A stretch of DNA of 50,152 nucleotides, the filler included, from Jimgerdemannia flammicorona (lineage: Eukaryota), in assembly GCA_003990765.1 (NCBI GenBank). It is 2 parts of 2 records of this genome, joined end to end, with 100 filler letters (N's around TTAATTAATTAA, not from the genome) between each part and the next. Parts side by side here need not be neighbours in the genome. Positions count along the whole stretch, not along the records: positions 25,127 to 50,152 come from RBNJ01000891.1; 1 more part is not named here. The stretch is one strand, 5' to 3'. Shown one piece after another: positions 16,594 to 50,152 of the stretch; within the stretch, counting starts at the first letter, position 1; every line of letters begins with the position of its first letter. The notes below the pieces were generated by a model. That model was given only the letters and a program-made list of their open reading frames with translations. It had not been told where the DNA came from and did not search any database. The position numbers were made by a program, and so were the translations under genes.

Positions 16594-19500
16594 AACACCT
16601 TTCACCAGTAACATTCGGGTGACACAAAACTCAGACAACACTTTTACAACGTTTTTGGTGCCCAACGACTAACAACATGGATGGCAATGATCGATCTGGT
16701 GAGCGTACTGGCCAGGGGGGTGACGGCGCCTTTGGCTGGCAGCAGGTGGGGAGGAGGGGAGATGGTTTGGGGATGCCAGGGGCCTCGATGGCTAGCCGGG
16801 GCCCCAGCAGCAGAGGGAGGGGAGGTCTGAGGCAGAGAGGAGGGGAGCGGTCGACCTTTGCTGACAAGGTCAGGATGGGGAAGATGGCTTCTGGGCTGGA
16901 TAGTTGGCTGGGACTGGGGAAGGCATTGATGGCTGCTGCTGGGGGTCAGGGAGATATACCCCAGGGTACTTCTGGTAGTAGGGAAGGGGCCGGAGTAGGG
17001 GCTGGAGATGTGACTGCTGATGGGGCTGTGACTGGGGATCTGGCAAAAAATCCAGATGTGACGGTGGTCAGCAATTTGGGACTTGGAGGGGGCATGAGGC
17101 CCGGGGACCTGGTGGATGGGATGATGGGCATGGTGTCGGCCCCATTACTCAAGAAGTCGAGGTCCGAATTCGCGGTCACGATGTGCTTCCAGGGCTTGGC
17201 CGTGACGGCGAGAATGATTTTGGGGCTGGTGGCGCAGGAGGCTAAGGGAGTGGCGTCGGTGAAGTTCTTGAGGGGAAAGGAAGGGGTTGAGGTGGGGTTT
17301 GAGGAGGAGGACGCCTTGTTGGCGGCCATGGAGAAAGGGGTGATGGTTGGCAGGGTTGTGGTCCCTATGGTCCGGTGTATGCGCTGGGACCCCCGGGTGG
17401 TACAGTTGACAGTATTGGACCTCCCTATGGTATCGAAGGAAAGGACCAGGGAGTTGGTTGTGGAGGCGATCAAGGAGTATGGCAAGATTGTGGATGTTGG
17501 GTTCAAGGTCTGGGAGGGCATGGAGCTTAGGACTGGAGACATCGATGTCAGGGTGCGACTGGCTGGAAAGGAGAATATGGGGAAGTCGAGGGACTGGCCA
17601 GCAGCGTTGAGGTGGGGCCAGGTGGAGTGTAAGGTCACTAGGGTGAAGGGGACGCAGGAGGAGGAGGAGGATCTGTTGGAGGCTCTGGAGGATCTGGAAG
17701 GGGCAGTTGCAAGGAGGAGATTAGCCTGGAGGGAGTTTGAGATGAAGATGGTGGTGGGGGAGGTGGATGGAAAGAGGGTTCGGATGGAGAAGGGGGCCTG
17801 GGAGAGGTTGCAGGGGAGGAAGATTCAGAAGGAGTTGTTAGCGAAGTTGGGCGGGGGTGGGGCTGGTGGAAGCTCCAGGGCGGGGGCTGCAGGGTTGCAG
17901 GAGAGTGCCTGGGCTGAAGGGGGAGAGATGGCCCAGGGCGGGGCTCAGGTTGGAGTCAGGGAGGGGCAGGAGGATAACTTGGAGGTGGATGCTGAAATGG
18001 GAGAAGGTGGGCGCCCTCAGTATAGTGTTCCAAATGGAGCAGGAGGTGAGGAGGAGCTGATGGATGTGCCAGAGGAGGAGTGGGATGAGTCAGTGAGGAG
18101 GAGCGCACTGGTGGACCCCGAGGTGGATGGGGGACAGATTGCTCAGGGGGCAGCAGAGGCAGTCAATGAGGAGAAGTGGATGTAGAAGACCCTGGAAGGG
18201 ATAGCGGCTGAGGAGCTGGGGGGTGAGGACTTCAGGGTGATGGAGGAGAGGCATTGGGAGGAGATTCTATGTGGGGAAGAGGTGCCAAGGAAGATGAGGA
18301 ATGAGATCCTGGCTGTCCTCCTGGAGTCGGTCGAGTATCAGGTTGATGATCAGCGTGAGGAGGAACTTAGAAGGATTGCGAGTGACCGGGCGCTTGTCTT
18401 GTGGAACTCGAGGAAGGGACTAGAGAAGTGGCGTGCAGTCTGCTTGGATTACAGAGCGGATATGGAGGAGGTGGACAGGGTGGAGTGTCAGGAAATCTTG
18501 GGGGCACTGGATGCTCGGGATATTGCGGAGGGTGAATTGGAAGCTGAGTGGCTCTTGGACTTGGCGAGGGATGAGATGAGCATGGAATTATAGGTTGGGG
18601 TCTCTTTTACAATTTCTATTCAATATGAACAGTACAACAAAGATATTTTCATTGAACGTTAACGGGTTACGGGGGGCGGCTAGGAGGAAGTACATCTTTG
18701 GTTGGCTTCGGGGTCTGGATGCAGACCTCTTCTTGTTACAGGATGTTCGGTATGAGGCAGATGTGGATTTACAGGATTGGTCTAAGGAATGGGGGGGTGC
18801 AGCAGTTTGGAGGGGGAAAGTGGGTATTCTTGTTCGGAAAGGGATGGGGGACATTGGGGACATTGGACATTGGGGGTCACGGGTGGTGTGGGGAGTATGG
18901 AAGAGGCCTGGATGGGGCTCGCTGACGGTTGGGTCTTGTTACTGCCCGGCTGAGAGAGGGGAGCGAGTGGATTGGATTCACAGGTTGAAAGAGGCTGGTT
19001 TGTTGGGAGAAGTTGGGTTGAACTGTATAGGAGGGGACTTCAACATAGTACGGGATAAGGAGTTGGACAGGACTGATGGAGGGAGAGGCATGTGAGGTGA
19101 AAGTGGTGGGTTGGCAGACTGGTTGGAGACAGAAAGGTTGTATTCTTTAGTGGACTCAGGGAGACACTTTTGGGCTGATCGGAGGGTGTATACCCATTGA
19201 GCAGCAGGACTGGGCTCTAGGATTGACTGGGTTCTCACAGCGGAGTGTTGGAGAGCAGATGTCTGGACGGTGCTGGGAGTCGTATGGTGTCCATGGTCTG
19301 ATCACTGGGGGTTGCTTGGAGGGGGGAGGTTTGGGGGTAATGAGGATGGGCCTGGACATTGGCGGTTAAATTCTTCCTTGTTGGAGGATAGGGCATTGTG
19401 GGAGGGTTGGAAAGCAGAGGTGGTGGGCGTTATTGGCAGGTGGCGGGATCAAGGACTGGCAATTGGGGACTGCTGGAGGAGGTTGAAGGTGAAGGCTCAG

Positions 19501-19923
19501 GGGTATTGGAGGGAAGCGGGGAAAGGGAAGTGTGATCAGTGAAGGCGGCGGGTGATGTGGGCCTCACGGCATTTGGCGGTACTCTTGGAGAGATGGGCGG
19601 GTGTGCTGGAGGATAGGGCCGAGACTGATTGGCATATTGCAAGGATCCGGCAAGAGGTGGAGGAGCTCAAAGGGGTGCTATGGAGGGAGGAAGAGGAGCA
19701 GTTGCAGGGGATGGTGGCCCGCTTGCGCTGGCAGGGGCTAGAGGAAGGGGAGAGACCTACCAGGTTCCTGTCATGGTTGTTACAAGCGCGACGAATGAGG
19801 CAGCGGTGGGAGGGAGTTTTGGATGAGAATGGCGAGCTGGTGGTGAGGACTCCGGCGATTTTGGGCCTATTGCGTTCCCAGTGGGGGAACCTTTGGAGTG
19901 AGGATGAAGGGGGACTGGAGTAG
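16594..19923 (+). mobile_element. L1/Tx1-like LINE copy A (5' end, ORF1, APE endonuclease; interrupted before RT)
   Basis: 5' end CCTTTCACCAGTAACATTCGGGTGACACAA matches copy C. ORF1 16,677-18,593 has one in-frame stop. ORF2 from 18,625: FSLNVNGL, LLQD, GGDFN, RIDW, SDH. Least decayed copy. Confidence 0.92.
16677..18593 (+). pseudogene. LINE ORF1 (Gly/Glu-rich; possible RRM-like core)
   Basis: ORFs 16677..18185 and 18237..18593 are in one frame. VVQLTVLDLPM...EAIKEYGKIVDV resembles the ORF1 RRM-like segment. Homologous to 33,607-35,635. Confidence 0.8.
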
Positions 19924-22900
19924 TGGTCCCCATAGTGCAGTGCTTAAGGTAGGACTCCAGGGTGGTGCAGCTTCTGGTGATAGGGGTACCTATAGTGACA
20001 AAGGAGAAGACTAAGAGGAGGGTAGAGGAGGTGATGATAGAGTAAGTGATGTAGTGGACATTGGCTTCTAGATGTGAGAGAGAACCACATTCAGGATGAG
20101 TGACATCAATGTCAGGATTCAGCTAGCAGGGAAGGAGGCCACAGGGAAGCCAAGTGACTGGCCCTTGGTGCTGATGTGAGGGGCTTTTGTCTATAAGGCA
20201 TTGAGGGTGAAAGAGAGTGATGAGGAAGAGGAGAACTTATTGGAGGCTCTGGAGGAGTTGAGTGGTACTTTGAGAGGAGGGCAAAAGCCTGGAAGCTGTA
20301 TGAAGAGTTGATATATCTGGAGGTTGTGGATGGGAAATATATTCATACTGACAGGAGGCAGTGAGAACAGGTCCAGGGGTGCAAGAGGCAGAGGGAGCTT
20401 TTAGCAAGTATGACAGGAGGGGCAAAGAAGAAGTTGGATGGGGCTGAGGAGTCTGGAGGCATCGAATCAAGTATCTGGGCTAGCAAAGGAGGAGAGAAGG
20501 TGGAGGTGAATGAGGAAGAAGCTGGGAAGGTGCTGGGCAAGGATCTCTATACTGACAGTATATTCAAAGTTTGGGAGCAGAATTTGGATAGCACTCTCCC
20601 CCCACTTATCAGGAGGGGCCCAGTTGAGAAAAGAGGGGCAGCAGAGGATATACTGATGCAGGGGGCCCAGCATGTTCACTTTGGGGTCCCAAATGTGGTG
20701 AAAGGGGACCAAGTGGTAGTGGTTGGTGAGGATGAGCTGGTTGATGTCCCAGAGGAGGAGTGGGATGAGACTGCCAGTATAGGAGCAGATACCATGATGC
20801 TGAATGCAGGGTGACCAGAGACTCCTGGAGGGAAGGAGGTGGGGAACCTGTGGATGAGCAAGGTGATGAATAACCTCATAGCTGAGGAGTTGAGATAAAT
20901 TGACCTACATGTAATGCCAGAGGAGCATTGGACACAGATTCTGAATGGGGATGAGGTGGTGGAGACACTGAAGGTGGAGATTCTTGCTATTTTCCTAGAA
21001 GAGGAGGGATATGAGATTGATTAGGTAAGAGAGGCAGATTTGGCAGTGGTTGCTGGTGAGCAAGCTGCCTACTGTTGGGTATAGCATCATGGTTTACAAC
21101 TCTGGCAGAAGGCCTGTCTGGAGTATTGTGAGGACTTTGAGGTGAAAGAGGATGGGGGGATAGTTGAACTTCTGGAGGGGTTGGAGGCACAGAAAGCTGA
21201 GGAGAAGAGACTAGCTGCAGAACATGACTTACACTTGATGCAGGAGAACTTGAATGTGAATTTGTAGTGGATGAGATTGATAAATAACAGTATTTCTTAT
21301 AAACAGTACAACTAACATTTTCTCTCTAAATATAAATGGGCTATGAGAATCTGGGCAGTATAAGAACATTTTTACTTAGCTCAAGAGATGGGAGACTGAT
21401 CTCTTTTTACTGCAGGATGTATGGTGTGAGGATGAGGATGATCAGGTAGAGTGGACTAGGGAATGGGGTGGAGCTACTGCTTGGTTTGGCAAAGTGGTGA
21501 TTCTGGTGAAGAAGGGTAGAGGAGATTTGGGTGGAATCAGGAGCTGGGTTGATCACTTGGTCTGAGGCAAATGGTATTGGCCAGGATGAGAATCAGTGAG
21601 GGTGGGCTCCTGCTACTGCCCTGCAGTTAGGGGTGAAAGGATTGCATAGATTAAGAAGCTACTGGAGGGGGGTATTCTCTTAGAGGAAGGAGTCAATGTT
21701 CTTGGTAGTGATTTTAATATGGTTCAAGATCTGTGACTAGATAGAACTGATAGAGGGAGGAATGCAGGTGGGAGAAGTGGTGGTCTGGATGCATGGGAGG
21801 AGGTAGAGAATCTTAGCTCCTTAGGGGATATGGGCAGAACACAGTAGGGTGATGCCAGGGTCTATATACATTGGGTGAATGGCTTAGGCATGAGGATTGA
21901 CTGGATTTTGATGGCTGAATATTGGGGTGCTGATGTCTGAAAGACTTTAGAGATGACATGGTACCCATGGTCTGATCACTGGGGACTATTAGGGTAGGGG
22001 CAGTTTGGGGGGAGTGGAGATGAACCTGAACATTGGCATCTTAACTCCTCTCTGCTAGCTGAGAAGGAGTTGTGAGACTTATGGGTGGAGGATATCCAGG
22101 CAAAGGTTCCTATCTGGAGACATGAAGGTCTGTTGGTGGGTGTCTGTTGGATGAGGTTGAAAGAGACTATGAAGGTCTATTGGGGAGGAGCTGGTAGAGA
22201 GGCTGGGAGACAGAAGAGGAAGTGCATATGGTCTGCTTCTAAGAGGCTGATGAGATTGTAGATGGAATGGGCTGATTTGCTTGTTTCTGATGAGGTGGAG
22301 GATTGGAGATTAGAGCAGGCAAAATTGGAAGTAGTTGAACTGCAACAGATGTTGAGAGAGGAGGAGGAGACTCATATGTGAGGAATGGCAGCCAGGCTAT
22401 GGTGGCAGGGGCTTGAGGAGGGAGGGTGGCCTACTAGATACTTGTCTAGGCTTCTCAAAGCTAGGAGGGTGCAACATCAGTGGGATCTTTGATGCTGAGG
22501 GAGATATGGTGTATGGCATGCAACAGATCTTGGGGGTCTTGAAGGAGTGATGGCAGGGTCTGTACAGTGAGAAAGAAGGGGGTGCTGATGAAGAGGCAAT
22601 TGGAGATACACTGGAGAAGTGGGAACTACCACAGGTAGAGGGCCTGGGTGACTTGATCTTACTGGTCCAAGAGGAGGAGGTCCAGAGAGTCCTTGCAGCA
22701 ACTAAACTTAGAATAGCACCAGTAGAGGATGGGTTATCTTGAGACTTCTGGAAGTAGATGGCAAAGGTCCCTGGAGTGTTAGAAGAGATGGCTGCCCTCT
22801 ATGACCATGTTCTTCTGAATGGTAAGTGGGTTGGAGAGCAGAACTTAGGGTTAGTGACCTTATTGTACAAAGACAAGGGCAGGCAAGAGGACTGGAAGAA

Positions 22901-25026
22901 TTGGAGGCCAATCATGCTTTTGGATATGGACCAGAAGTTGGTGACTAAAGTGATTGTTGCAAGGCTGTAGAAGGTTGCTCAACAGGTGCTGGGTGAGGAG
23001 CAGCAGAGTTTTATAGGAGGTAGGCTTATCAGAGATGGGACTGCCTGGGTGAATGGCATCATTGAAGGGGCTCGGGCCTGTGGGCTGGATGGTAGACTGG
23101 TCTTTTTAGACCAGGAGAAGGCCTATGACTATGTTCAGTAGGTATGACTGGGCAAGGTACTGGACAGAATTGGTGTCCCACCATAGTTTCGGGCCTCTAT
23201 GTTGAATTTATTGGAGGGTAGTAGGGCAGCACTGATGTGTAATGGTCACAGGGGTTTGGCATTTCTCTTGGGGAGAGGAGTGTCTCAAGGAGACCTGCTG
23301 TTCCCTATACTTTATACCCTTTCACTAGAACCTTTGATGGATAGAATCTCTCAGAAGGTGGCTGGGCTCTCTATATATAGTGTGGTGTAGAAGGTGGGAG
23401 TCTTTGTGGATGATATGGTAGTTGGACTTGGATCAGTGGCAGATGTAGGGTCACTTATGGAAACAGTAGAATGGTATGAGGTACACTCTATGGCAAAACT
23501 CAACTAGTATAAGTGTGAGATGTTAGTGTTGGAGAATGGATTGGTGGGAGGGGATATCATTGGAACAATTGTCCCCACAGGAGAGATGGTACAGTATCTT
23601 GATATCTTCTTTTCTATATATGGATCAGTCTTGCCATGGGTGTGGTGGGAGAGGAGGGTGGCTATTTGGGGGGAGGCTCTGAGAGGTTGGGGGGGTTGTC
23701 ACATCTCTCTGGCAGAGTGGGTGTCGATCCTTAATGTGTACTGGTTCCCCAAGCTGTGGTATGTGGCATATCACTTAGACTTTCTGGCCTGGGTGATGAA
23801 GAGGCTGAAGAAACTGGCTCAGGATTGGATTTGAACAGAAAGAAGGTCCCAGATTAGTTGGGAAACCCTTGTGGAGCTGGTGGTTAGGGAAGGCCTAGGT
23901 CTTGTAGATTTCCCTAGGTGCCTATACTGCCTGCAAGTTTGGTGGTTGAAAAGGGCTGTTGAACTTCAAGGAGGAGGTTGGGTTCCACTGATGCAAAAGG
24001 TATGGGAGATGAGATTCTCACCCTGGGGGTCCTCAGGAGACTTGCTCTCTCTGGTGGATCTGAATGAAAGCCGATGGCTACAGTATAAGGGCTTCTGGTG
24101 GGGGGTGGTGGATGGAGTGCACCAGATAGGTCTGTGCTGGAGAGACAATGAGGGGAAGGAGTTGTAGGGCTCTGCTATGTGGTGATGGGACAGACTATTG
24201 CTAGGGGGGGTTCTGCTTACTGAGTTTGATATTGGTAATGGAGTTGAGTGTCAGTAGAGACTTGGCCAGGATCTTTGGATGAGTAGTTGACAGGTAGTGG
24301 GAATTGGTGAGGAGTGAGACTGGGCAGGAATCTAGGCCTGGAGTACTGAGGTGCAGCAGTGGCTTCTTTCAAAGTTCTGGGTGGTGTGGTAGTGAATGCT
24401 GCAAAGGAATATTATGTTAAATTTCTGTACTAGGGATCTGGTAGATGTTGGCTGATTAGATTGTAAGGAGTATTATAATATAAGGCAAGCTGGGGGTTCT
24501 GTGCAGATGTTGGAACATTGGCTGAGAGAGTGTGAGATTTTGGGAGACTTTTGGATAGCTATAGGGGACTGGCTGGGTGTAGAAAGGAGGCTGGATAGCA
24601 AGAGAGATCACTGGGAGGATTTGAAATCTAGACTAGTGAGAGGTGTTGGCAATGGGTAGCTTACTATAGGGTGGGTTATTGTAGTGTTGGTAGGGTTGGC
24701 TGGACATTGGCTATTTGTTTTTGAGGAAGAGTGACAGACAGAGATGCCAGAGAAGTTAGTGAGGTGGGAGGAGTTGATGGGAGATCTACTTATGGGGTAG
24801 TGAGTTGGTTAGGGTTCCTAGGGTGAGTAATATTGCCATCTGGTGGAAGGGATCTGTGGCCAGAGTGGTGGGCCGGTGAAGATGGTATTTGACAAAGTGG
24901 TCTTTCATTGAGAGGGGGTAGAGGTGGGGCCCTAGGGGGATCAGATAGGAGGGGGGCACTGTGTAGTATATAGAGGATAGACAGGTATATTAATAAAGGA
25001 TAAAGTCTATATGACTATAAAAAAAA
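19924..25026 (+). mobile_element. L1/Tx1-like LINE copy B (starts mid-ORF1; EN, RT, C-terminal Cys/His; poly(A) runs into the gap)
   Basis: Begins at the VVPMVRC...DPRVVQL-homologous segment. RT motifs WRPIMLL, LDQEKAYD, GVSQGD and FVDD. Many premature stops. Confidence 0.92.
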
Positions 25027-25126
25027 NNNNNNNNNNNNNNNNNNNNNNNNNNNNNNNNNNNNNNNNNNNNTTAATTAATTAANNNNNNNNNNNNNNNNNN
25101 NNNNNNNNNNNNNNNNNNNNNNNNNN
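25027..25126. other. Artificial scaffold/contig spacer
   Basis: 44 N + TTAATTAATTAA + 44 N gives exactly 100 bp. Confidence 0.95.
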
Positions 25127-28449: not shown

Positions 28450-30600
28450 AGGTATATCTTGAGGCAGTTGATATATACTAGTATCCTCAGAGTTCATTTA
28501 TCCATACTTCTTAAATAGATGCTAGTTTCTCTAATATTATATACAAGATAAGATTCTTCCCATTTGAGCTCCAGTTTGGTGACAAAGTTTATTTCAATCA
28601 TGCTTCTCTAAACTAGTACTTGATCTCTGATCTTGATCTTCTGATCCTTCTGCTTCTGGTTATAATACTTTTTTTATCTCTCTTGGGCCTTGATAATCTG
28701 AACTTATGCTTGATTATATAACTGTTCTACCTTCTTGAGGAGGTCTCTGAGGTTCTCATAATTAGCAGTTTTGGTTTTTTTTTTTGACAAACATTATCTT
28801 GAAGGGCTTTTGTTTAGTTGAGGCAGCAGGGGTGTTCTGAATTTTCTATAGAATCTCAGATAAGTAGAGGTCTCAGTTGGTAGAATTGACTTGAGCAAGT
28901 TTTTTCTTGATGATCTGATTCATTCATTCTATCATACCATTGGTCTGAGAGTAGTATGATATAGTCTATTTGAGATAGATCTTGTGAATTTAGATATAAC
29001 TTATGATTATGTTATTAATGAATTCTGTGCCTCAGTTAGAGATAAGTTCATCTAGGAGTCTATATCTGAGTGTAAGTCTATAAAAGAGGTCTACAATGGT
29101 CAAGGCATCTGTGATTTCTATTGTGAAAGCTTCAGACCACTTGGTCAGATATTCCACAAATATAAGGATGTACTTATTTCTTCTTGATATAACTGGTAGA
29201 GGTCTAATTATATCTACTCTCCATCTCTGAAAGATATTATCTGATAGTATAATTAGTTGTAGTAGTACTTGATGGTTCTTCCTTTCTTGATACTTCTGGC
29301 AGATATTATATTTCTTAAGTATGACCTAGACTTATGTTCTGAGATTGGACCAATATTGATATATTATTCATAGCTTTTTTTCTATATTTGTCTACCCTTG
29401 GTGAACTTTCTGGTACTCTTTTCAGATGAGATCTTCTTGTGCCTTGATAGTCTGGAAAGCTTCCTTTAGAGTGTAGTTCCTCAGTATACCCTTCTTCTAG
29501 TTTATTGAGGTTGGCAAAAAAGTATATCAATATTATTATGAGTTTTTTTTTTTTGATTTATAGATAATGGTAATTTTTTAATTCTGGAGGATAAGGATCC
29601 AGTAGGCTAGGATTTCAGTAGGTTTTTTGTAGTTTAATAGCCATTTGAGGGCTGTATGGTCAGTTATTAAGATGAACCTTTTTCTAATAAGGTAATGCTT
29701 GAACAGGATGACTGCTCATATGACTGCAAAGTATTCTAGTTTGGTACTACCATAGTTCATCTGCTGCTGATTGATAGCTTAGCTTATATAAGCTATTATA
29801 TAGTATTATTAGTCAGGTTCTTCTTGGACTAGAACTGCTCCCAGGCTATCTTTGGAGGCATTTGTATATAAGATAAATAGCTTCTATAGATTGGGCTGAA
29901 TAAGAATTAGTACTATATAGTGCTTGAGTTATTTGAAGGCTTTCTCTTATAATTCCATCTATTTGTAATATACTTCTTTTTTGAATTAGGGCAGTGATTT
30001 GAGTAAAGTTCTTGATAAACCTTCTATAGTAAAATACTAGTATCAGGAATGATAGTATTTCCTTTAGAGTCTTGGATACTGGCCAATTATTGATCTTCTT
30101 AGTTTTCTTTAGCTCTACATGAGTTCTCTCTATTGAAACTATAAATCTAAGGAATTCAAGTTTCTGTTTCTCAAAGTAGTATTTTTTGATATTAAGTCTC
30201 AGGTAGTTCTTGTGAGTGAGCTTAAAGAATTCTTCTAGGTAGTATAGATATTCTTCAAAATTTACTGAATAGATGTTGAAATCATCTATATATACAATCA
30301 GACAGTAGTAGATCAGAGGAGCATAGACTGAATTCATTATTCTCTGAAAGGTAGAAGATACATTACAAAATCTAAAGGAGATTTGAAGATATTTAAATGG
30401 TTTTCCTAGAGCAAGAAAGACTATCTTCTTAATGTCTTTAGGATCTATAGAGATCTCATGAAATTCTGCAAAAAGATCTATATTGCTGAAGTATCTGGCA
30501 TCTTGTAACTGGTCCAAGAGATCATCAATTCTGAGCAAAAGATAGATATCCTTTTTGATGACTAAATTGAGTTTTCTGTAGTTTATACAGAGTCTCTATC
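28450..30600 (-). mobile_element. Decayed Ty3/Gypsy pol (RT-RNase H-integrase)
   Basis: RT (RIDDLLDQL, IVYIDDF), RNase H (YTNASKDSLGAVL, ITDHTALKWL), integrase (VEYLTKWSEAF, ISN*GTEF) and GPY/F-like tail. Domain order is Gypsy. Cut at 30,600 by the SINE-like copy. Confidence 0.9.
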
Positions 30601-32560: not shown

Positions 32561-33518
32561 TATAAGGCTATATTATATCAGAAATTAGGTTCAGATACTA
32601 TGATCAAATATCTAATTCCTTCTGATTTATATTTCTAATTTAGATCAACTGTCACACTACATAAAAATAAATAAATAATCTAAAAGAATAAATTAATTAT
32701 AATATTTAATCTTAAATTCTAGTAGGATCTTAAGTTATTAATCTTTATTAAAACTGCTTAATAATAACTTTAATCAGTAATTATAAAACCTTATAATCTT
32801 TTTAAAAGACTTTATATTTAAATAAATCTACTTATAGATTTTAGCTATATATATTTTATTTTAAAAAACTCAACTATATTAGATAAATAGATATATATTA
32901 TAACTATAACTATCAAATCTATCAATTAGATAAATATTATATAAATAATATAATCTATATAATATAATCTATTAAAAATATCTTAGTATTAGTTAGTCAA
33001 AATAATATATAAATATTCCAGCTTTTGATAGTAAAATAAAGTCAGTTTAGTTCAGTTCAGTCTTATTTTATATATATATATAAACTCTTTTAAAGAGTCT
33101 TAATAATAATTTTTAAATTACTCTGTAAAACTTAGAGCTAGTATATAAACATCTTAATTCTAAATTAAAGTAGTTCAGTTTGTATATATTAAATCTCTTA
33201 GCTATAGTAAATAAGAGTTGATTATTATTCTACTAAGAAATATATTTTCTTATTTAGAAAAGTATCTAATAAAAGACTCATTTAGTTTTATAAAACTAAA
33301 GTCTCTAGTAATTAAGTTATCTTGCAAGAGACTTATATAATATCATATAAATTTAAATATAAAATAAATGAAGAGATATGTATATATTAATTACATATAT
33401 AATATTATAATATATATATATATAATATATACTAAGTAAAAGATATGAGAGAAAGAACAAACTCTTCAAAACATAATTAGAAGGCAAATAAATACATTGA
33501 CTAAGAGATTATTTATTA

Positions 33519-36500
33519 TGATATCTTTCTCTGGTAATATTCAGGTTACACAATCTTTTGGCAATACTTTCGACACAGTTTCTGGAGATAAGCTACTAGT
33601 ATTATAGTGACCAATGAGCTTCCTGAGGTACATACTGGGCAGGGTGGCCCTGGAGTATTTGAATGGCAGCAAGTGGGGAGAGGCCCTGGCTTGGGGAGTA
33701 GCATGAGGGGCCTGCTGGCGAGAGGCCACAGTGGAGGAGGGGGTGGAGCTGGCAGTCAAGGGTCTGGCAGAGCAAGCTTTGCAGAGAAGGTGAAGAGGGG
33801 TCAGCAGGGAGCTGGACTGAAGAGCTGGCTGAGGGGGGGGAAGGTGCCGGTGAGAGCTACCAGGCAGCAACCTCTTGAGGGTATCTCTGGAGGGCCATAG
33901 GGGTGGAGCTGAGGGGGTAGCGGCTAGGGCAGAGACTGCTGATGGGGGTGTGATGGGCAATCTGGAAAAAAATCTAGATGAGACTACTGATGGTGAGCTG
34001 AGTAGTGGGAAGGGCATGAGGTTCGGGGATCTGGCAGATGGTGTAATGGGACTAGCAGTGGCTCTGTTACTCAAGAAGTCAATCTCAGAATTTGCAGTCA
34101 TAATGTGTTTCCAGGGCTTGGCAGTGATGGCAAAAATGGTTCTAGGGCTGATTGTGAAGCAGATGAGTGGGGCAGCATCAGTTAAGTTCCTGAAGGGCCT
34201 AGAAGAGGTGGAGATGGGATTTGAGGAGGCTGGGCCACTGGAGGAGACTTTGAAGGCTGGGATGAAAGTGGACGAAGTATATATACTGATGGTGAGATAC
34301 CTGCGGTGGGACCCAAGAGTAGTGCAACTTCTGGTGAAAGGAGTTCCCACTGTTACTGCTATAGAGATGAGGAAGAGAGTCAAGGAGATTATGGCGGAGT
34401 ATGGGGAGATGGTTGATATTGAGTTCAGAGTGTAGGAAGGAACCTCTCTCTGGACAGGAGATGTTAACGTCAGAATTTGGCTGGCTGGGCGGGAGGCTAC
34501 TGAGAAGGCTCGAGACTGGCCCTCAGTGATGATGTAGGGGGCTATCTTGTGCAAGATGATGAGAGTAAAGGGGAGTGAGGAGGAAGAGGGGGATTTGCTA
34601 GAGGCACTGGAAGAGTTGAGTGGGGCAGTTGAGAGGAGGGCGAAAGCATGGAAAGCATTTGAGGTGGTAACGCATCTTGAGGTGGTTGGAGGAAAGTGAG
34701 TCTGCATCAACAAGGAGGTGTGGGAGAGGTCCCAAGGGTGTAGAAGGTAGAGAAAATTGTTGGCGAAAATGGGGGTGAAGGCGACGAGGAAGGCAGGTGA
34801 TAGTGTGACTACCAGAGGTACTGAGGCGAGTGTCTGGGCTACTAGTAGTGGAAGGAATGAGGAGGGGGGGCAGGTGGAGACCATAAAGGTGCCGAACAAG
34901 AATCTGTATAAAGATGGCACACTGGAGGTTTGGGAGGATATCTGGGAGGATTCACCTTCACCCTTCCTCCTTATCAGAAGGGGTCCGGCAGTGAGAGGTA
35001 GGGTGGTGGAGGATATGCCGATGCACAGTGCTCAGTAGGTGTGTTTTAGAGTCCCAAATGTTGAGAAGGGGGGATTGGTAGAGATGACTGGGGAAGAGGA
35101 ATTGGTGGATGTCTTGGAGGAGGGATGGAATGAGTCAGCAAGTATGGGGGCTGATACTATGATGTTGGATGGAGGGAGGCCAGTGACCCTAAGAGGGAAG
35201 GAGGTGGGAAACTTGCTCTGGGTATGCCAGATGATGAACAACTTGGCAGCAGAAGAGCTGGGGGAGGTCGACCTTTGAGTGATGAGTGATGAGCATTGGG
35301 CAAGGATCCTGCAAGGTGATGGAGTGGAGGCAGTATTGAAGGCAGAGATTCTGGCAGTATACTTAGAGGAGGAGGGGTATGAGGTAGATAAGGAGAGGGA
35401 AGCTGTGCTGGCAATTGTGGTGGGTGAGCAGGCCACCCACTGTTGGACCAAGAGGCATGGGCTACAGCTCTGGCAGGAGGCTTGTTTGGAGTACTACAAG
35501 GAGTTTGAGGAAAAGGAGAATGGGGAGATGGCTGAAATCCTGGCTAAATTGGAGGCTAAGAGGATCGAGAAAGCTAAAGCTACTGCTGAGTGCAATCTGG
35601 ACAGGGCACAGGAGGAAGTAGATATGGAGCAGTAGAGAACACATCTGAAACTATATAATTTCTCTTATGAATAGTACAACCAACATTTTTTCTTTGAATG
35701 TGAATGGGTTACAGGGTACTTATCAATATAAGAACATTTTTACTTGGCTGAAGGGATTGGAGGCTGATCTCTTTCTCTTGCAGGATATCAGATGTAAGGA
35801 TGACTTGGATAGACTGGAATGGATGAAGAAGTGGGAAGGTGAGGCAGTTTGGAAGGGCAAGGTTGGAATTCTGGTGTGGAAGAGCAGAGGAGAGATACAG
35901 GATGTGTAGAGCTGGGGGGATAGATTGGTCTGGGGAGAGTAGATATGTGTAGGTTGGGAGCCAGTCATGGTGGGCTCCTGTTACTGTTCTGTGGTACAGG
36001 ACAAGCAGGTGAACTGGGTGATGGGCCTACAGAAGAGTGGGATTCTTGTAGAGGTTAGGGTAGATGTGCTGGGTGGGGACTTCAATATAGTCTGAGATAT
36101 ATTGAGGAATAGAACTGATGGAGGACAAGGTGCTGTGGGGTGGAGTAGAGGACTGACAGTATGGGAGGAAGTAGAGAGACTTAGTGCTCTGGTGGATGTG
36201 GGTAGGGAATGTTGGGGGAATAGAAAGGTGTACACACACTGGGCCGGAGGCCTGGGGACAAGGATTGATTGGATTCTGATGGCCAGCTGCTGGGGCCTGG
36301 ATATTTGGAAGTCACTGGAGGTGGAATGGTGTCCTTGGTCGGATCATTGGGGGCTTTTGGGGCAGGGACATTTTGGGGGGAGTGGGGATGGGCCTGGACA
36401 TTGGTGTCTCAATTCCTCCCTACTAGATGACAAGATCAGGTGGGGTAAATGGGCTGAAGTCATTCAAATGCAGGTGGAGTGCTGGAGGCAAGAAGGTGTC

Positions 36501-39382
36501 ACAGTTGATATTTGGTAGATAAGAATAAAGGAGATAACCAGGGCCTTCTGGAGTGAGGCTGGTATGGAGGCAGGGAGACAGAGGAGGCAGCAGGTACGGT
36601 GGGCATCTCGTAGACTATCTAGACTCTTGGAGGACTGGGTGAGACTGGCGACATTGGAGGGAGAGGAGGACTGGCATTCGATAAGGTTACAAATAGAGGT
36701 GGCTGAACTACAACAGGTGCTGCAGAATGAGGAGGAGGCTAGGGTCTAGGGTCTGGCAGCACAGCTTCATTGGTAGGGGCTGGAGGAAGAAGAGTGGCCC
36801 TTGAAGTTTCTTTCAAGGGCCCTTCAGGTGAGAAGAGTGTAGCAAAGGTGGGAGGGGGTGCTTAATGCTGATGGTTCATTGGTGTATAGGGTACAGGACA
36901 TTCTTAGCTTGTTAAAGGAGCATTAGAGTGGATTGTGGAGTGAGGAGGAGGGTGGGGCTGGTGCTGAGGATATTGATCAAGCCTTGGAGGATTAGCACCC
37001 TACCCAAGTAGCTGGGTTGGATGACTTAGTACTATCAGTACTAGAGGAGGAGATCCACCAGATTCTTGCTGCGACAACCTTGGGTATGGTACCTGGAGAG
37101 GATGGTCTGCCCTGGGACTTCTGGAAAAGGATGGTGGGAGTCCTTGGAATAGTGGGAGAGATGAGGGTACTGTGTAATTGGATTCTACAGATGGGGAGAT
37201 GGGTGGGAGAACAGGATCTAGGGTTGGTAACATTGCTTTATAAGAACAAAGGAAGCTGAGAGAACTGGAAGAACTGGAGGCCAATTATGCTACTGAATAT
37301 GGATAGAAAGTTGGTTACCAAAGTGATGGTCGCAAGATTGCAAAAGGTGGCCCAGCAAGTCTTGGGTGAGGAGCAGCAGAGCTTTGTTGGAGGCCAGCTC
37401 ATCAGAGATGGTATGGCATGGGTACATGGAGTTATTGAAGGGGCGTGAGCCAGTGGACTGGACAGGCATCTGGTCTTTTTGGACCAGGAGAAGGCCTATG
37501 ACTGGGTGTGACAGGTCTGGTTGGCAAAAGTTTTGGATAGAATTGGGGTCCTGCGACAGTTCAGGACCACCATGGTCAGTCTACTGGAAGGAAGTAGGGC
37601 AGCACTCATGTGTAATGGACATAGAGGGGTAGCATTTCCCCTGAGTAGAGGGGTGCCCCAGGGGGACCCACTGTCCCCCATTTTGTATGCTTTGTCTCTG
37701 GAGCCCTTCATGGACAGAATACAGCAGAAGATAGTGAGGCTCTCTATCTTTGGCATCAGGTGGAAAGTAGGGGCATTTGCAGATGATATGGTGGTCAGTC
37801 TGGGATCAGTTGCAGATGTTGAAGAGCTCAAGGAGATAGTGGAGTGGTATGAGGTGAACTCTGGGACTAGGCTTAATTAGCATAAGTGCAAGACAATGGT
37901 GTTAGGCAATGGTCTAGTGGGCGGGGAGATTATTGGTATGATTGTCCCTGCTGGTGAGGTGGTATGGTACTTGGGTATTTATCTGTCAGTATATGGGTCA
38001 GTTCTGCCCAGACTTTGGTGGAAGTAGTAGGTTGGCATTTGGAAGGAGGCCCTGAGGAGTTGGGGGGACCATCAATTGTCTCTGGCAGGCTGCGTTTCGA
38101 TTCTGAATGTCTATTAGCTACTAAAGGTATGATATCTGGCTTATCATCTGGACTTCCCAGATTGGGTGGTAAAGTGATTGATGAAGCTGGCCAAGGGGTG
38201 GATCTGGGCTAGAAGGCGGAGTCAGATCAACTGGGAGGTCTTGTCCTTCCTGGTGGTGAGTGGGAGACTTGGGCTGATTGACTTTCCTAAGAGACTATAC
38301 TGCTTGAGAGCTTGGTGACTGAAGAGAGCAGTGGAGTTAAGAGGGAGTGGTTGGGTTCCCCTACTGCAGAAAGTCTGGGAGATGAGGTCCTCTCCGAGAG
38401 GTTTGATGGGTGATCTCCTAGCACTTGTGGGCCTTCAGAACTCTGGACAACTACAGTACAAAGGCTTCTGGTAGGGAGTGGCAGAGGGAGCATGCTATAT
38501 TGGGATTAGGTGGCAGGGAAATGAAGGGGAGGAGGCTTGGGATCAGGTGATGTGGAGATGGAACCAAGTGTTACTAGGTGGTGTTACCTTACTTGAGTTT
38601 GACATTGGTGATGGGGTTGAATGCCAATGGGGACTGGGCCAGGATCTGTGGCCTAGTAGTTGGCAGGGTGTAGGAATTGGTGAGGAGTGAGACTGGTATA
38701 GCATATGGGCCTGGAGTGCCAAGGTGCGGAGGTGGTTGCCGCTGAAGTACTGGGTGGTCTGGTGGCATATGCTGAGGCAAAATGTTATGCTCAACTTCTG
38801 CTCTAGTCACCTTATCGAGGGGGGCTGCTTCAACTATGAAGAGTGTTATAATGTAGGGCAGGAAGGGAGATATGTACAGATGCCTGAACATTGGCTAGGA
38901 GAGTGTGAGGTGCTTTATTCCTTTTGGCAGAACATTGGGGATCATCTGGGAGTAGTGTACAGGAGAGCTGATGTGCAGGGGCAATGGGAGGACTTAAGGG
39001 ATAGACTGGAGGAGGGGGTGGGGAAGGAATGGCTGACGTTAGGGTAGGCTTTGGCCATTTGGGTGGGGCTGGCCAGTCACTGGCTATTTGTATTTGAGGA
39101 TGGGAGGAAACTTGGCTCTGAGGTCAGGCTGATGAGGTGGTGTAGTCTTATGGAAGACACCTTGATGGGCTGGTGGCTGGATTGGGGGTTGAAAGGGGGT
39201 CAAAGGCATCATTTGGTAGAACAAATCTGTAGGCAGAGTGGGGGGAGGGTTGGGGTTGTGGGTGCGAAAGTGGTTTTTGTTTGTGTGAATAGGTGGAGTG
39301 GTACTCCTATGGGGATCGGGTAGTGAGAGGGTAAACTGTAAAATTATTAATAGACAGCAATAAATGGCAGAGTCCAAGTGAC

Positions 39383-39454
<72 letters not shown>
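33519..39454 (+). mobile_element. Full-length L1/Tx1-like LINE copy C with 16-bp TSD (inactivated)
   Basis: TSD AAGAGATTATTTATTA at 33,503-33,518 and 39,455-39,470. ORF1 ~33,607-35,635. ORF2 35,667-39,323 with APE, RT (GVPQGDPLSPILY, FADD) and a C-terminal Cys/His segment. ~70-nt poly(A). Confidence 0.95.
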
Positions 39455-39459
<5 letters not shown>

Positions 39460-44969: not shown

Positions 44970-47645
44970 GGGTATGATGAATTGAAGCAGAGGCAAGGAG
45001 AACGAGTAAATGATAACTGATGCGATGTTTTGGTAGCAGGCTCGCGGAGGTTGGTGGTCGTGGAATGAAGGTGACTGGATTGGAGAAGGGAACGTGTGGT
45101 GACATTAACAGATTCACATATTGTGTAGAGTTGAGAAAACGGCAGACATCCAGGACCAGTGATGATTTCTTTTCTTTTCTTTCCTTTTTTATTCTTTTTA
45201 AAAAAAAAAATCTTGCCTTTTATCTCTTTTGCCATGATTATTTTTCGATGCTACTCATCCACTTACAATTGCTTCTCTAGTAAGCGCGTATCACGTGTTC
45301 TGTAACATAGTTTTCTTTTTGTTGTATGCGTTTCCTGTCAGTCCAGAATCGCGCAGAGCTGTTCAACCGCGACATAATGAGGAGGTGTCTTCTATAGTAA
45401 GCAGAGAGCGCCTGGTAGTCGTACGTGTTCACGCCATTTGCAAAAGCCAGTAACCCAGTACATATGGAACAAATCCTCATATTTATAACTGCTGGAATTG
45501 CTCAGTTGAATTATTTTCCTTCTATCCAATATCCCTTCATTAAAGAAATAATGATCTATTATATATATATATTATAGAGATATTAATACAGAGATATATG
45601 TATGTTACTTTTGTAATAATAGAAAATATATTTATATAAAGTTAGATTTTTTATTATTATTTAATTTTATATTATAGAGAATAGTTTAAAAACTATATAT
45701 TAGTAATTTTATATAATATAGATATATGTATTTAAATTAGACTTTAATTTAAATTAAATAATATATATATTAGATATTTAGGATAATATTATATTTAATT
45801 TCTAAAATATTTATTTAAATTTTGAAAAATGGTTATATAAGTTATATTTATATTTTATAATAATAATTTATAGTTTTCAATTTAGTAAATAATTTCAATA
45901 ATTAGTATTGAAGAACCCTCTAGAAAAATATTTTCTAAAAAATATATATTATTAACTAAGAGTACAGCAGAATTCTTTTTAGGTTATTTACAACTTATTT
46001 TATAATTATAAAGTATTGCTTTAGTAGTTAAGCAAATAATTTAAAATATTCCAAACTAGCTCTATAAGATATAATTCTTTGATATTTAAACATAACATGG
46101 TCACCGCTTACTGTGATTATCGAATGTTCAACCGTCACACGACAAGACTGATCAGTTCGGTTCCAACTAGCAAAATCCTGAAGCGTCCGAATCAAATAAG
46201 CTTATGCCGAGTAGCTCGAAGCGCTACCTTCAGCCCTCACATACAAACCACTACTCCAATACACCTGGATTAGACATGCAGTTCTCTATGGCAGATGATG
46301 AAAAGAAAAACACTATCCTCATATTTATTATTATTAATTTTAAAAAGACAACCTCAATAGTTTCCGTCTTTGAATATTGATTCCACACCATTCTCTCGCC
46401 CCAGCACGTTAACAAAATTTCAATTGGTCCTACTACATTTTCATTCCTATCCCGCAACCGCCCATTGCTTACCTCCCCGCACATCTGGCCTCGAATTCCA
46501 TCGTTGAACGCTATTAGTGCCCATGAATACGATGCTTGTGGATGGGACTTGTGAAAGTGGAAGCCTCGGAGAATCTTTCAGGTCAACGATCAACGCGCCT
46601 CCAATACAGCAGCTCCTGCTATTATACATGTGTTGTCTTTTCGCCGGACCAATCTGCAACCGCCGCGCCTCCTAGTATTCCTGCTGCCTTGTACTTCATC
46701 CCCAGCTTGAGCTTCAGCACGTCGGCAGTGCCACAGTGCTCGGTACGCGCACAAATTGGCTAGCGGCGGGTTGTAGTGGAGATTGAGCTTGATGCGGAAG
46801 GTAGGAGGTGAGCCTGTCTCGCGGACGAGCTCGCGTGAAGTGGAGCATTTGAGGTGGCGCCGGTGGGTCACCGTGGGACCTCGGCATGGTTTCACGCAGG
46901 GGAGCTGGAGCTTGGTGTGGCGGGTGCTAGGAAGCGGAGGATGTGTATGATATGTGGGCAGGGCTGATGGCTGGTTTGGGAATCTGAAAGTTGAAATGGA
47001 GAGAGTAAGACGCTTGTAAGATGATTGGGGATCTAAAGGTTCAATATGCGAATCCGATTTGGTCCAAACCTACGGGTCGTCGTTAAGAAAGGCAGCGGGG
47101 TCACCAAGGCCAAGGTGATGGGGCTGGCATCCCGTCAGGCTCCGCCCTATGTATATACATCATGCTTCTTGCGCTGCTATCTCTTTATTCTTTTTACTCC
47201 TTCCCTCCCCAACATGAGATTCCTTTGCTGAGATTCCCTTTCTTTCATCTAGAGCGATTATTCTAAATTGCTATAATGATATAATGATAAACGATTGATG
47301 CGGGCGATGGGCAATTGGCATAGTGGTGAGCTGGGGGTCTCGATAGTCTGCTCGAGCGTCATGATGTTTCAGAGCCAAGTTGTCGCTTATTAACCCCTCC
47401 CTCAAGTCCCCAATAGCACCATCACCACACGTGGTTCTGTTATTACACCGTTTTCCAATGGCTAACAGACTCGGTCGACAAGCGTTGGATATGGTTTCTC
47501 TTATGAGTTAAAATTAAGCGTGTACTTGGTGTGGTGTGGGACTTGCTAAGCGAGAAAGATAAGTAAGCTTTTATTTTCTGTTTGTTTTCAACACTTATTT
47601 AAACTCTCTTACTCACTTGTTTTTGACCGGCGCGAAACGCGTCGC

Positions 47646-47716
47646 GCCGGTCTTGGTTGCTTCTTATGCCAACTGATGAGCCCCTTGAGCAAGGGCGAAA
47701 CCGGTCTAGGTCATAG
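47646..47716 (+). ncRNA. Hammerhead ribozyme (type III fold; alternative minimal type I fold)
   Basis: GCCGGU-C^ (47646-47652), stem I UUGG/CCAA, core CUGAUGA (47673-47679), stem II GCCC/GGGC, GAAA (47697-47700), stem III ACCGGU. All catalytic core nucleotides are present. Confidence 0.85.
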
Positions 47717-47944
47717 TTACACCTCATAGCCTCTATTGTAATATGACTTTTCGTCACGAAATAAAATAAAATAATAAAAACAACACCAAAATGCGATAAA
47801 GTGGAACAAGGAAGTCAAGAGATTGTTTACGACGCCTACTAAATTTGCCGACACCCGTCACCAGCACAGCCTCGTAACGCCACCCTAAGTAGTCCCTTGT
47901 ACCCCCTCGTTCGGCCGTTGGAGAAGCAGGTGGAGACGGGGGGA

Positions 47945-48036
47945 CGAAGGGGGTTTACCAGGTGGGCGAAGGGTTTACTAGGTGGGCGAAGGGGGTTTAC
48001 TAGGTGGGCGAAGGGGTTTATCAGGTGGGCGAAGAG
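47945..48036 (+). repeat. G-rich minisatellite, ~20-22-bp unit (AGGTGGGCGAAGGG(G)nTTTAC.)
   Basis: About 4.5 copies read directly. Confidence 0.9.
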
Positions 48037-48514
48037 GTTGGGTTTGGGGGTTGCCGGCATGTATAAGTAGCCTCCCCGCCACTCCTGCCTTTCCAGCACA
48101 CCACGCTCACTCACCCCCTGCGTTGAACTTTGCAGAACAGTGAATCCAATAGTCACCCTGGCTACAACAGAGCGGTTGTCAGCTGGCCAGCTGCCTGCCA
48201 GCACGAAGCCGCCGCGCGTTGTGGCTCTTGATCTGTTGAGGTTATTTGGGGGCATGGCTAAAGTCGCTTTCTGTCAAGGCCTGGTTTGAGAGGGTACAAA
48301 GGATATGGAATAAACGACCTTCGATCGCCCTGTATTCATCAGATTCCAAGACGTTCTTGACAACGTGGGTACATTTATTTCATGCAGTCGCATCGTATTC
48401 TTGCATCTCCGAGCTACACCAATCCTTTCCCCACACCTTATTCTAATTGACACCATCCCCTCCCCCAGTACGGTACGGTCCCCACGAGACTTGGTACGAG
48501 CTCAAGCCCTCCGT

Positions 48515-49950
48515 TTCCGCACGAAGGCTCCACTCTTCCGACCGACGCACCTCGCCGTATACCGCAAGGATCGCTACGACTGGGACCGGGACCGAGACCG
48601 GCATGATAACTGCCCGCGGTATGACGACGGCAGGAGGGACGTCGACGTGATCAAAGAGATACCGACCGGCCGCAGTACGACGAGAGGAGGGGGCAAGAGC
48701 AGGATCATGACCGGTACGATGACCGTGATCGATACAGAAATTGGGGATCGCGACACCGATTCGAGGGTGGAGTGGATAAGCGATATGACGATGGTAGGGA
48801 GACTCGGAGACAGGGAAGGAGAAGGCGGACAATGATAACCCGTCCAATGATCAGAGCGTGCCGGTATCGTTGGAGGAATTGATTGCAAAGGAGGAGGCGG
48901 AAAAGAGGGAAGCTGAAAAGGTTCGTAGGACGATATAATATCGTTTTTTATTTATTTATATTTTGCTGCGAGACAGCGGCGCATTTCGGTTAACCGATAC
49001 ACCATTCTCTGTTCTAACGTTTTGCAGCCGAAATTCTTCACCAAAGAAGAGCGCGCCAAACTAGCCTTGGAGAAGAGGCAGCAAGAGGTCGAAGAATTGT
49101 GGCGTAAACAAGAGCAGGAGAGGCATGTGCGCGATGAGTTTGACATGAAAGCGATGGAGGAGGCAAGGAATCACTATAATGTCCATATCCCCTTTCTTTG
49201 CCATCATTTATTAATGTCGAGGGTTCTGTCATTCCTACTGACAAGTTACTCTATTTGTCACATAGGGTGCGACCGGAGAAACCGCAACGATCGCGAGCAA
49301 CACTTCGAATGTGATTTCGGCCGTGAGAGGGATCGTAATGGGGAGAGATTAATGAGAGAGACAGACGCGAACCTCCAAAGACTCCCGCTGCGATGGAACT
49401 AGACGACGACAAGGAGGTACAGGTTATCAGGGTAAGATTTCGTCCCGCCGATTCAACTCTGCCAAACTTTAGCGGCTTTGTTTGATCATTTTCTTGCTAT
49501 CACCTCGTCTTTCCGCACGATCTTGACAAACGAACAGGAGCGCCACATGGACGGCGAGCGTCGCAAGCGTAAGATCCGCAAAATGAACGAGAAGGTCGTG
49601 TTCGACTGGGCGACCGACGAGGACACGTCGTACGACTTTAATCCGCTGTACGCGAACCAGCACGACGCGCGAATGTTTGGGCGCCGGCATTTCGCCGGCA
49701 TGAACATTAAGGACCAGATCAAGCAGCGGTTGGCTTTCTACAACCGCATGCTCGAGGAGCCTAGGACCGTGCTGAGGAGCTGATGGATATCGACCGCAAA
49801 GATACAGTGGGACGACAGGCACCGGTTCGAGAAACCGCTCGAGCATTATGAAGGAGAGCTCCTACGATCCTCGGCGTCATCGATCACGTCGGGTACAAAG
49901 AGCCAACCCTCATTCAAAGGTAGACGATTCCCATCGTCCTGCAAAACTGT
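48515..49950 (+). pseudogene. PRP28: Unprocessed, truncated pseudogene of the splicing DEAD-box helicase Prp28/DDX23
   Basis: RD/RS-rich start, VSLEELIAK, PKFFTKEERAKLALEKR, KRKIRKMNEK..FDW...DTSYDFNPLY, WDDRH.FEKPL, GYKEPT.IQR*TIPIVLQN (Q motif). Introns retained (48921-49027, 49432-49537). Frameshifts, a deletion and a stop at 49,921. Ends before motif I. The 5' boundary is approximate. Confidence 0.9.
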
Positions 49951-49951
49951 A

Positions 49952-50120
49952 GGCCTATTGGCTAAGATCAAGTGTAGTATCTGTTCTTAATAGTTTAACA
50001 ACTATTATATGGATCAATGATCCGTTGTTTGTTAATCTTATTTTTGAACCTGGGTCCTGAGCTCCGGCTTGCCGTCTCAGGCTCACAGGTGTCCCCGGGT
50101 ATCGCACTACCTCAGGGGAG
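49952..50120 (+). ncRNA. U2: U2 snRNA, lacking roughly the first 10 nt (probable pseudogene copy)
   Basis: GGCCTATTGGCTAAGATCAAGTGTAGTATCTGTTCTT with branch-site recognition GTAGTA. Stems IIa and IIb, Sm site ATTTTTG (50040-50046), SL III (50048-50090), SL IV with loop ATCGCACT. Confidence 0.93.
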
Positions 50121-50152
50121 GTTTTTTTTTTTTATTATTAATCAAAGAATTT

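Follow-up and report, generated by a model that had tools for sequence, protein, structure and literature searches.

The hammerhead motif and its locus

In this work we analyzed a 50,152-nucleotide (nt) stretch of DNA, referred to below as the window, from the fungus Jimgerdemannia flammicorona (Mucoromycota, Endogonales). The element under study is a predicted stand-alone hammerhead ribozyme on the plus strand, situated in a 2.3-kb spacer (46000-48300) that is poor in open reading frames (ORFs), as assessed here and below by a Pfam scan of 74 ORFs of the window. A gene with DEK_C and SWIB domains lies upstream (43.7-45.0 kb, plus strand), and a DDX23/Prp28-like gene starts downstream at ∼48.3 kb (plus strand). 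The DEK_C ORF matches a protein attributed to J. flammicorona at 100% identity. Of the sampled words of 47200-48200, fractions of 0.42, 0.25 and 0.06 occur in three sequencing runs, none of them listed as RNA and two of them RNA by guess. The original prediction had placed in this spacer a complete hammerhead core with two alternative folds: a type III form cutting after C47652 (fold A) and a minimal type I form cutting after C47706 (fold B). The coordinates of the features are collected in Table 1.

The predicted core was confirmed in full: CUGAUGA and GAAA (47697-47700) were read directly from the sequence, GUC is found at 47650-47652, and the Rfam model Hammerhead_3 (RF00008) matches the motif over its entire length. 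From the position of GUC the cut is predicted to fall after C47652, which is C17 of the triplet. Fold A was likewise recovered by the Rfam model and is supported by compensatory changes in relatives (see below); its topology is that of type III, with loops closing helices I and II and with helix III open. Helix III (G47646-U47651 with A47700-U47705) consists of 6 bp, five of them Watson-Crick and one G-U. Helix I, UUGG(U)/(G)CCAA, has 5 bp (47653-47657 with 47668-47672) in the order U-A, U-A, G-C, G-C and U-G, and helix II (GCCC/GGGC) has 4 bp. All core positions are canonical: CUGAUGA, G10.1-C11.1, GAA, A15.1-U16.1 (A47700-U47651) and C17, a cleavable H17. UUGCUU (47657-47662) and GAGCAA (47687-47692) are complementary over 6 bp as read from the sequence, and a loop 1-loop 2 pseudoknot of this length is possible. 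Loop-loop pseudoknots are documented for all three hammerhead types (PMC3088659). We concluded that, at the motif level and judged by its sequence, the segment 47645-47706 (plus strand) is a genuine type III hammerhead.

Table 1. Coordinates of the ribozyme, its parts and the adjoining features in the window.
Feature	Position	Strand	Basis or detail
Type III hammerhead ribozyme	47645-47706	+	coincides with the Hammerhead_3 match, 37.9 bits over all 54 model positions
Hairpin, 11 bp (GACCGGCGCGA / UCGCGCCGGUC)	47625-47652	+	6-nt loop 47636-47641; -22.5 kcal/mol
Helix III 5' strand GCCGGU	47646-47651	+	partner 47700-47705
Predicted self-cleavage site C47652/U47653	47652-47653	+	placement of GUC relative to the core in the Hammerhead_3 alignment
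Helix I with 10-nt loop 1	47653-47672	+	loop 1 = 47658-47667
Catalytic core CUGAUGA (C3-A9)	47673-47679	+	sequence read and Rfam alignment
Helix II with loop 2 CUUGAGCAA	47680-47696	+	47680-47683 with 47693-47696; loop 2 = 47684-47692
Core GAA (G12-A14), then helix III 3' strand ACCGGU	47697-47705	+	ACCGGU = 47700-47705
Copy-specific duplicate of the cleavage context with second GUC	47701-47716	+	CCGGTCTAGGT = 47701-47711; pairs with 47664-47672 in fold B
A-rich run, AAATA x3.2 then AATAAAAA	47759-47780	+	53 nt past the ribozyme

The end-to-end Hammerhead_3 alignment had an E-value of 7.3e-7 in a search of 351 nt. When all 50,152 bases were searched on both strands with 4227 Rfam families (E ≤ 5), the E-value was 1e-4, and the only other match was a U2 small nuclear RNA (snRNA) at 49945-50131. 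The model search proposed in the original prediction was therefore borne out in its E-value but not in its bit score, since 37.9 bits is below the gathering score of Hammerhead_3 (48.5 bits, a curated cut-off and not a structural feature), and for this reason a default Rfam search misses the motif. The low score is due mainly to the long loop 1 and a bulge in helix II. The window motif has the structure that defines type III hammerheads and misses the Rfam score cut-off. The bare pattern CTGATGA-N6-36-GAAAC was non-significant, with one match in the window and at least one match in 27 of 100 shuffles; the full structure model exceeds chance, and the bare core pattern does not.

Metagenomic relatives and the upstream hairpin

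Relatives were sought in metagenomes with a search pattern in which GTCTTGG, CCAACTGATGAG and CGAAAC were the only fixed elements. Most of the 38 loci returned are evidently unrelated, being phage- or bacteria-like type III hammerheads. Three loci, L007 (minus strand), L019 and L036, are relatives of the window ribozyme and lie on soil-type metagenome contigs of 1.0-1.3 kb each, with 35-37% GC and without convincing ORFs. They are 81-85% identical to the window by BLAST across 53-54 nt and score 32.0-42.3 bits with Hammerhead_3. Their identity in the core and helix I is by construction, because the scan pattern fixed those parts. Two of the parts left free by the pattern are shared: the UAUG end of loop 1, found in all four sequences, and loop 2, which reads CUUAAGCAAGG in the three relatives and CUUGAGCAAGG in the window.

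The four ribozymes were aligned without gaps (alignment A4). In this alignment 60 of 63 cells of the type III helices pair, compared with 18-51% when the partners are slid. Both sides have changed in 4 of 16 pairs, three in helix III and one in helix II, where pair 10.2-11.2 is C-G or U-A; the observed covariation score was reached by 5 of 500 shuffles. Homologous copies with covarying stems, whose absence the original prediction had listed among its refuting outcomes, were found, with all double changes on one branch. The conserved block of the relatives spans ∼160-180 nt, starting ∼100-120 nt upstream of the ribozyme and halting at its 3' end, and L007 and L036 have a further 80-nt block in common ∼300 nt upstream. 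As far as these contigs tell, the pattern of conservation looks more like that of orthologous loci than of random insertions.

The loop 2 pattern was also found on viral contigs, in two type I hammerheads (L045 and L046) that have the same loop 2 and supply a third variant, G-C, at pair 10.2-11.2. The L046 hammerhead (1440-1600, minus strand) has GUCUUGGUAGCUUC in common with GUCUUGGUUGCUUC of the window, and 13 of 14 nt of GUC plus the helix I strand are identical. By this comparison L046 and the window type III ribozyme appear to be one module in different circular permutations, and the sharing implies that the loop and helix I design recurs across hammerhead topologies. Among prokaryote genomes the loop 2 pattern had one match (L047), in which no GUC site or helix III partner was seen by eye in 161 nt. 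A scan of viral contigs with the CCGG helix III pattern returned 6 loci. As a separate observation from the metagenomes, the L027-L030 contigs carry two near-identical type III hammerheads in direct orientation, 1024 nt apart (for example L027, 3001-3057 and 4025-4081), which resemble arrangements flanking genes or units.

The original prediction had overlooked a hairpin that overlaps the cleavage site. The window hairpin has a z-score of -4.40, with 1 of 200 shuffles folding as well, and was also recovered as a self-inverted match in self-BLAST. Its 3' arm includes the helix III 5' strand, and its last base, in the closing pair, is the cleavage-site C47652; the hairpin and the active ribozyme are therefore mutually exclusive, and cleavage would leave the 5' product with a blunt hairpin at its end. 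The minimum free energy (MFE) structures of L007 and L036 also contain a hairpin ending on the cleavage-site C, with a sequence unlike that of the window, at -15.5 kcal/mol (2 of 200 shuffles as good) and -15.0 kcal/mol (0 of 200), respectively, energies that include a second, unrelated helix further upstream. One hairpin pair is U-A in one of these two relatives and A-U in the other, as read from the MFE structures. The enforced active fold lies above the MFE by 8.8 kcal/mol in the window, 6.2 kcal/mol in L007 and 6.5 kcal/mol in L036; the value for L019 is 1.2 kcal/mol, with only 2 bp of helix III enforced. In the predicted structures, pairing of the upstream segment with the helix III 5' strand is a family trait, which in the window takes the form of a blunt-ended hairpin of 11 bp. 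This competing hairpin is the one unusual trait of the window ribozyme.

Hairpins at the cut were also examined in 29 distinct type III upstream segments from the same metagenome scan (window included; several are near-duplicates of one another). In 17 of the 29, a hairpin of at most -8 kcal/mol is predicted to end ≤5 nt from the cut, a recurrence that hints at capping of 3' ends as a general layout. GC-rich hairpins ending 0-5 nt from the cleavage site are present in many unrelated type III hammerheads (L008-L041). The loop and inner stem of the window hairpin (47633-47645) contain ACGCGT, with TTTCGCGC on the opposite strand; these resemble MluI-box and E2F-type cell-cycle promoter motifs.

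Interpretation of the locus

We consider it reasonably probable that the locus encodes a single-copy, cis-cleaving hammerhead that is retained by the host and is either gated or product-trapped by the upstream hairpin. This reading starts from the motif, its homologues, their compensatory changes and the competing hairpin, whose energy is predicted, and would imply a transcript, cleavage in vivo and a biological role; both transcription and cleavage of the window ribozyme are predictions. A transcript across 47600-47750 would fold in two exclusive ways, into the hairpin (off) or the hammerhead (on), as the upstream segment pairs with the helix III 5' strand through the cleavage-site C. In the on state, which the complementarity between loops 1 and 2 could stabilize, self-cleavage would occur between C47652 and U47653. 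In general, hammerhead cleavage yields an upstream fragment ending in a 2',3'-cyclic phosphate and a downstream fragment starting with a 5'-OH; the same ends would be expected here, the ribozyme body being part of the 5'-OH fragment. The upstream product might then snap into the hairpin, so that religation would be blocked and the new 3' end capped. The hairpin could serve as a lock, slowing or gating cleavage, or as a trap that renders it irreversible; given that the hairpin comes first in transcription and has a far more stable predicted fold, cleavage may be slow or need a hairpin-opening factor. At this locus, cleavage would define the 3' terminus of a non-coding transcript within the spacer between the DEK_C/SWIB gene and the DDX23/Prp28-like gene.

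Several results weigh against this reading. The pattern that retrieved the relatives had fixed the core and four helix I pairs; the relatives are three in number, and the alignment holds four sequences. All four double changes set the window sequence apart from the three relatives and so count as hardly more than a single independent comparison. Beyond the ribozyme itself the window and the relatives share nothing, neither coding sequence nor synteny. The loop-loop complementarity read from the sequences drops to 3-4 bp in L007 and L036 and is absent in L019, and all three relatives, like the window, score below the gathering score. L019 has no terminal hairpin, and 129 of 200 shuffles of it fold as well; the window hairpin is analogous to those of the other relatives and cannot be aligned with them. 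Finally, the off state is favored by 8.8 kcal/mol in the model and is transcribed first, and the encoded ribozyme may be almost silent.

A bolder version, which we hold to be quite unlikely, is that soil fungi conserve the hairpin and hammerhead together as a bistable RNA module, a small transcription unit that processes itself and is locked by the hairpin until opened. If true, the opened module would free a short hairpin RNA terminated by a 2',3'-cyclic phosphate or, alternatively, fix where a regulatory non-coding RNA ends (3') upstream of the Prp28/DDX23-like gene, and it would be a natural gated hammerhead with a host function in a eukaryotic nuclear genome.

The second GUC of the window (47704-47706) lies 54 nt past the first. 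It belongs to a repeat of the cleavage context, in which CCGGTCTTGGT (47647-47657) recurs as CCGGTCTAGGT with 10 of 11 positions identical (consensus CCGGTCT(T/A)GGT); the duplication noted in the original prediction is real and is specific to the window copy. GAAACCGGUC at 47697-47706 combines a very short palindromic helix III with GUC, as in minimal type I hammerheads, again in the window copy only. On this basis it had been proposed that one core cuts both as type III after C47652 and as a dimeric minimal type I form after C47706, freeing a 54-nt RNA, a model that we regard as extremely improbable. The two GUC sites are indeed there, the palindromic ACCGGU could form an intermolecular helix III, and minimal dimeric type I hammerheads with palindromic helix III are known from Penelope-like elements. 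Fold B can be drawn in the window copy, and its helix I (47664-47670 with 47709-47716) is present in the MFE structure of 47625-47725, where the upstream hairpin hides the first site; this helix, however, has a bulge and an A-A mismatch beside the core. Neither the second GUC nor the palindromic helix III occurs in any of the three relatives, in which fold B is not formable. Removal of the first GUC left a 5'-truncated type III hammerhead as the best Rfam match (23.9 bits), with the type I models ranking lower, and no tandem array around the ribozyme and no Penelope-like element in the window was found. Fold B was accordingly rejected as the working fold and is judged incidental because its palindromic helix III and second GUC are absent from all three relatives; from the sequences compared, the second GUC and fold B are best read as a by-product of the palindromic CCGG helix III in the window copy. 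That the whole motif is a chance look-alike without catalytic or biological role, its palindrome being a DNA-level element such as a protein-binding site (the loop contains ACGCGT, similar to an MluI-box), is very unlikely. The score below the gathering score, the frequency of the core pattern in shuffles and an MFE structure that does not form the ribozyme would all fit such a view, against which stand the whole-window E-value of the full model and the homologues on independent contigs, with their shared loops and compensatory helix changes.

It is also unlikely, although less so, that the ribozyme is a solo relic, without host function, of a mobile or replicating hammerhead element, be it a retrozyme-like retroposon, an element like a short interspersed element (SINE) or the cDNA of a viroid-like circular RNA; that the hairpin is then a leftover of the element's rod-like fold is unlikely to a like degree. 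In eukaryotic genomes, the best-known type III hammerheads are those of plant retrozymes and viroid-like RNAs, and hammerhead-bearing viroid-like RNAs and ambiviruses occur in fungi. Degenerate gypsy-like and long interspersed element (LINE)-like elements fill 1-39.4 kb of the window, and LINE-like elements there have long poly(A) tails; the A-rich repeats noted in the original prediction are present downstream of the ribozyme as an AAATA run from 47759, which could be poly(A)-signal-like or retroposon-tail-like. The 10/11 duplication looks like a target-site duplication or like a second unit at its beginning, and in L019 the conserved block of the relatives is set in otherwise unrelated flanks. 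Against a relic, no second hammerhead core was found in the window by core pattern, self-BLAST or Rfam on both strands, nor a direct repeat flanking the ribozyme; self-BLAST found no direct repeat of 46000-48300 elsewhere in the window, which ends 2.4 kb downstream at 50152. The best candidate for a target-site duplication is one 9-mer, at about chance level by our own estimate, and L007 and L036 share the second homology block upstream, as orthologous loci would. Around the motif the observed/expected CpG ratio amounts to 0.85-1.10, and over the whole part from 39.5 kb onward it ranges from 0.85 to 1.25, in agreement with the earlier description of the locus as CpG-intact; it is 0.00-0.24 in the retroelement-rich 1-39.4 kb, where CpA+TpG is raised. 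The repeats show CpG loss without the signature of repeat-induced point mutation (RIP), which points to CpG-targeted mutation rather than classical RIP. The ribozyme locus does not resemble an old repeat, because its CpGs are intact where the genome strips repeats of CpG.

Protein domains lead in the same direction. No reverse transcriptase (RT), GIY-YIG or ambivirus-like ORF was found by the Pfam scan within 9.7 kb of the ribozyme, and no GIY-YIG or Penelope-type domain among the 74 ORFs; the linked Penelope RT that the original prediction had proposed to look for was thus not found in the window. The statement that no RT is nearby held for these ∼9.7 kb but not beyond, where RVT_1 fragments lie at 37512-37877 (∼9.7 kb off, in a LINE-like context) and 29849-30595. 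Identity as a retrozyme, SINE or long terminal repeat (LTR) element was rejected, with no direct repeats, no tRNA genes found in the context and no convincing target-site duplication. Of the two origins suggested earlier, a domesticated ribozyme fits better (single copy in the window, CpGs intact), and a tiny retrozyme-like element is not supported, as retrozyme and Penelope features are lacking. An RNA polymerase III (Pol III)-like unit, with a TATA-like TATTTAAA at 47596-47603 and T runs past the ribozyme in L007 and L019, was likewise considered and dropped as unsupported, because the T run is absent in L036 and 40 nt away in the window.

Comparison with known hammerheads and neighboring features

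Hammerheads occur in all domains of life; to our knowledge, their roles beyond rolling-circle replicons and retroelements are mostly unknown. RF00008 includes ribozymes of viroids, plant satellite RNAs, plant retrozymes and phages, with which the window ribozyme shares the canonical 11-nt core, GUC and the same topology. It differs from them in its score below the gathering score, its Mucoromycota host, the upstream hairpin that overlaps the cleavage site, and its single-copy state without rolling-circle or LTR context. Hammerheads of the Penelope type and of retrozymes were reportedly described by Cervera and de la Pena in 2014 and 2016. The minimal type I form of Penelope-like elements and animal retrozymes has the same layout of palindromic helix III plus GUC as GAAACCGGUC; unlike it, the window has no tandem or paired copies, the layout is absent in the three relatives, and the core has a better alternative in the type III fold. 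By the features examined, the window ribozyme is not a retrozyme or Penelope-type ribozyme.

Closer parallels in genomic setting are the conserved single-copy intronic hammerheads of amniotes in RECK and C10orf118 (PMC3088659). As described in the passages available, these are stand-alone ribozymes in non-repetitive sequence with a possible loop-loop pseudoknot, and their conservation is limited to the ribozyme and its immediate flank, as in the window; they differ in topology and lineage, and the window ribozyme is assigned to no intron or gene. The same source, in part, gives the hammerheads of Yarrowia lipolytica as the first fungal examples, located in multi-copy interspersed repeats (PMC3088659). 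Compared by this text description, they are genome-encoded fungal hammerheads like that of the window, which, within the window, shows no sign of being a repeat. Rfam hammerhead matches in Agaricomycetes transcripts are mentioned in passing in a further paper (PMC8893723). In the titles, abstracts and passages searched, no genome-encoded hammerhead of Mucoromycota and no description of the window family was found; by title and abstract, the literature naming both hammerhead and Mucoromycota concerns ambiviruses and TatD enzymes. Short strings from the 3' half of the ribozyme, searched in paper text, gave only an unrelated bacterial match.

At the motif level, and as its sequence suggests, the window ribozyme is a real yet fairly ordinary hammerhead. 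For the study of ribozymes used in host RNA processing, a type III hammerhead present as one copy in an early-diverging fungus, with soil relatives and a conserved competing hairpin that reaches exactly to the cut, would make a compact test case; should it be no more than a relic, the known spread of the motif would be extended by a further lineage.

Other features of the window were noted. A tandem repeat (CGAAGGGGTTTACCAGGTGGG, unit 21-22 nt, 4.2-4.5 copies) lies at 47945-48039, between the ribozyme and the DDX23-like gene. The U2 snRNA match represents a full-length gene (plus strand, 117.5 bits, E 3e-23) directly past DDX23/Prp28-like ORFs (49436-49780), and the frames of helicase continuation near it look disrupted. 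An ORC1-like gene lies at 40.1-43.4 kb (minus strand). In the repeat-rich part of the window, two LINE-like elements on the plus strand (16600-25000 and 33500-39455) have Exo_endo_phos and RVT_1 matches and show a strong G-over-C skew of ∼0.5; a poly(A) stretch of ∼60 A near 39390-39455 terminates the second. At the 3' end of the first, ∼25010-25110, two N runs (88 N in total) surround TTAATTAATTAA and are probably an assembly gap or linker. A gypsy-like fragment on the minus strand (2-580 and 1316-1834) has a dUTPase domain beside a retroviral-type aspartyl protease.

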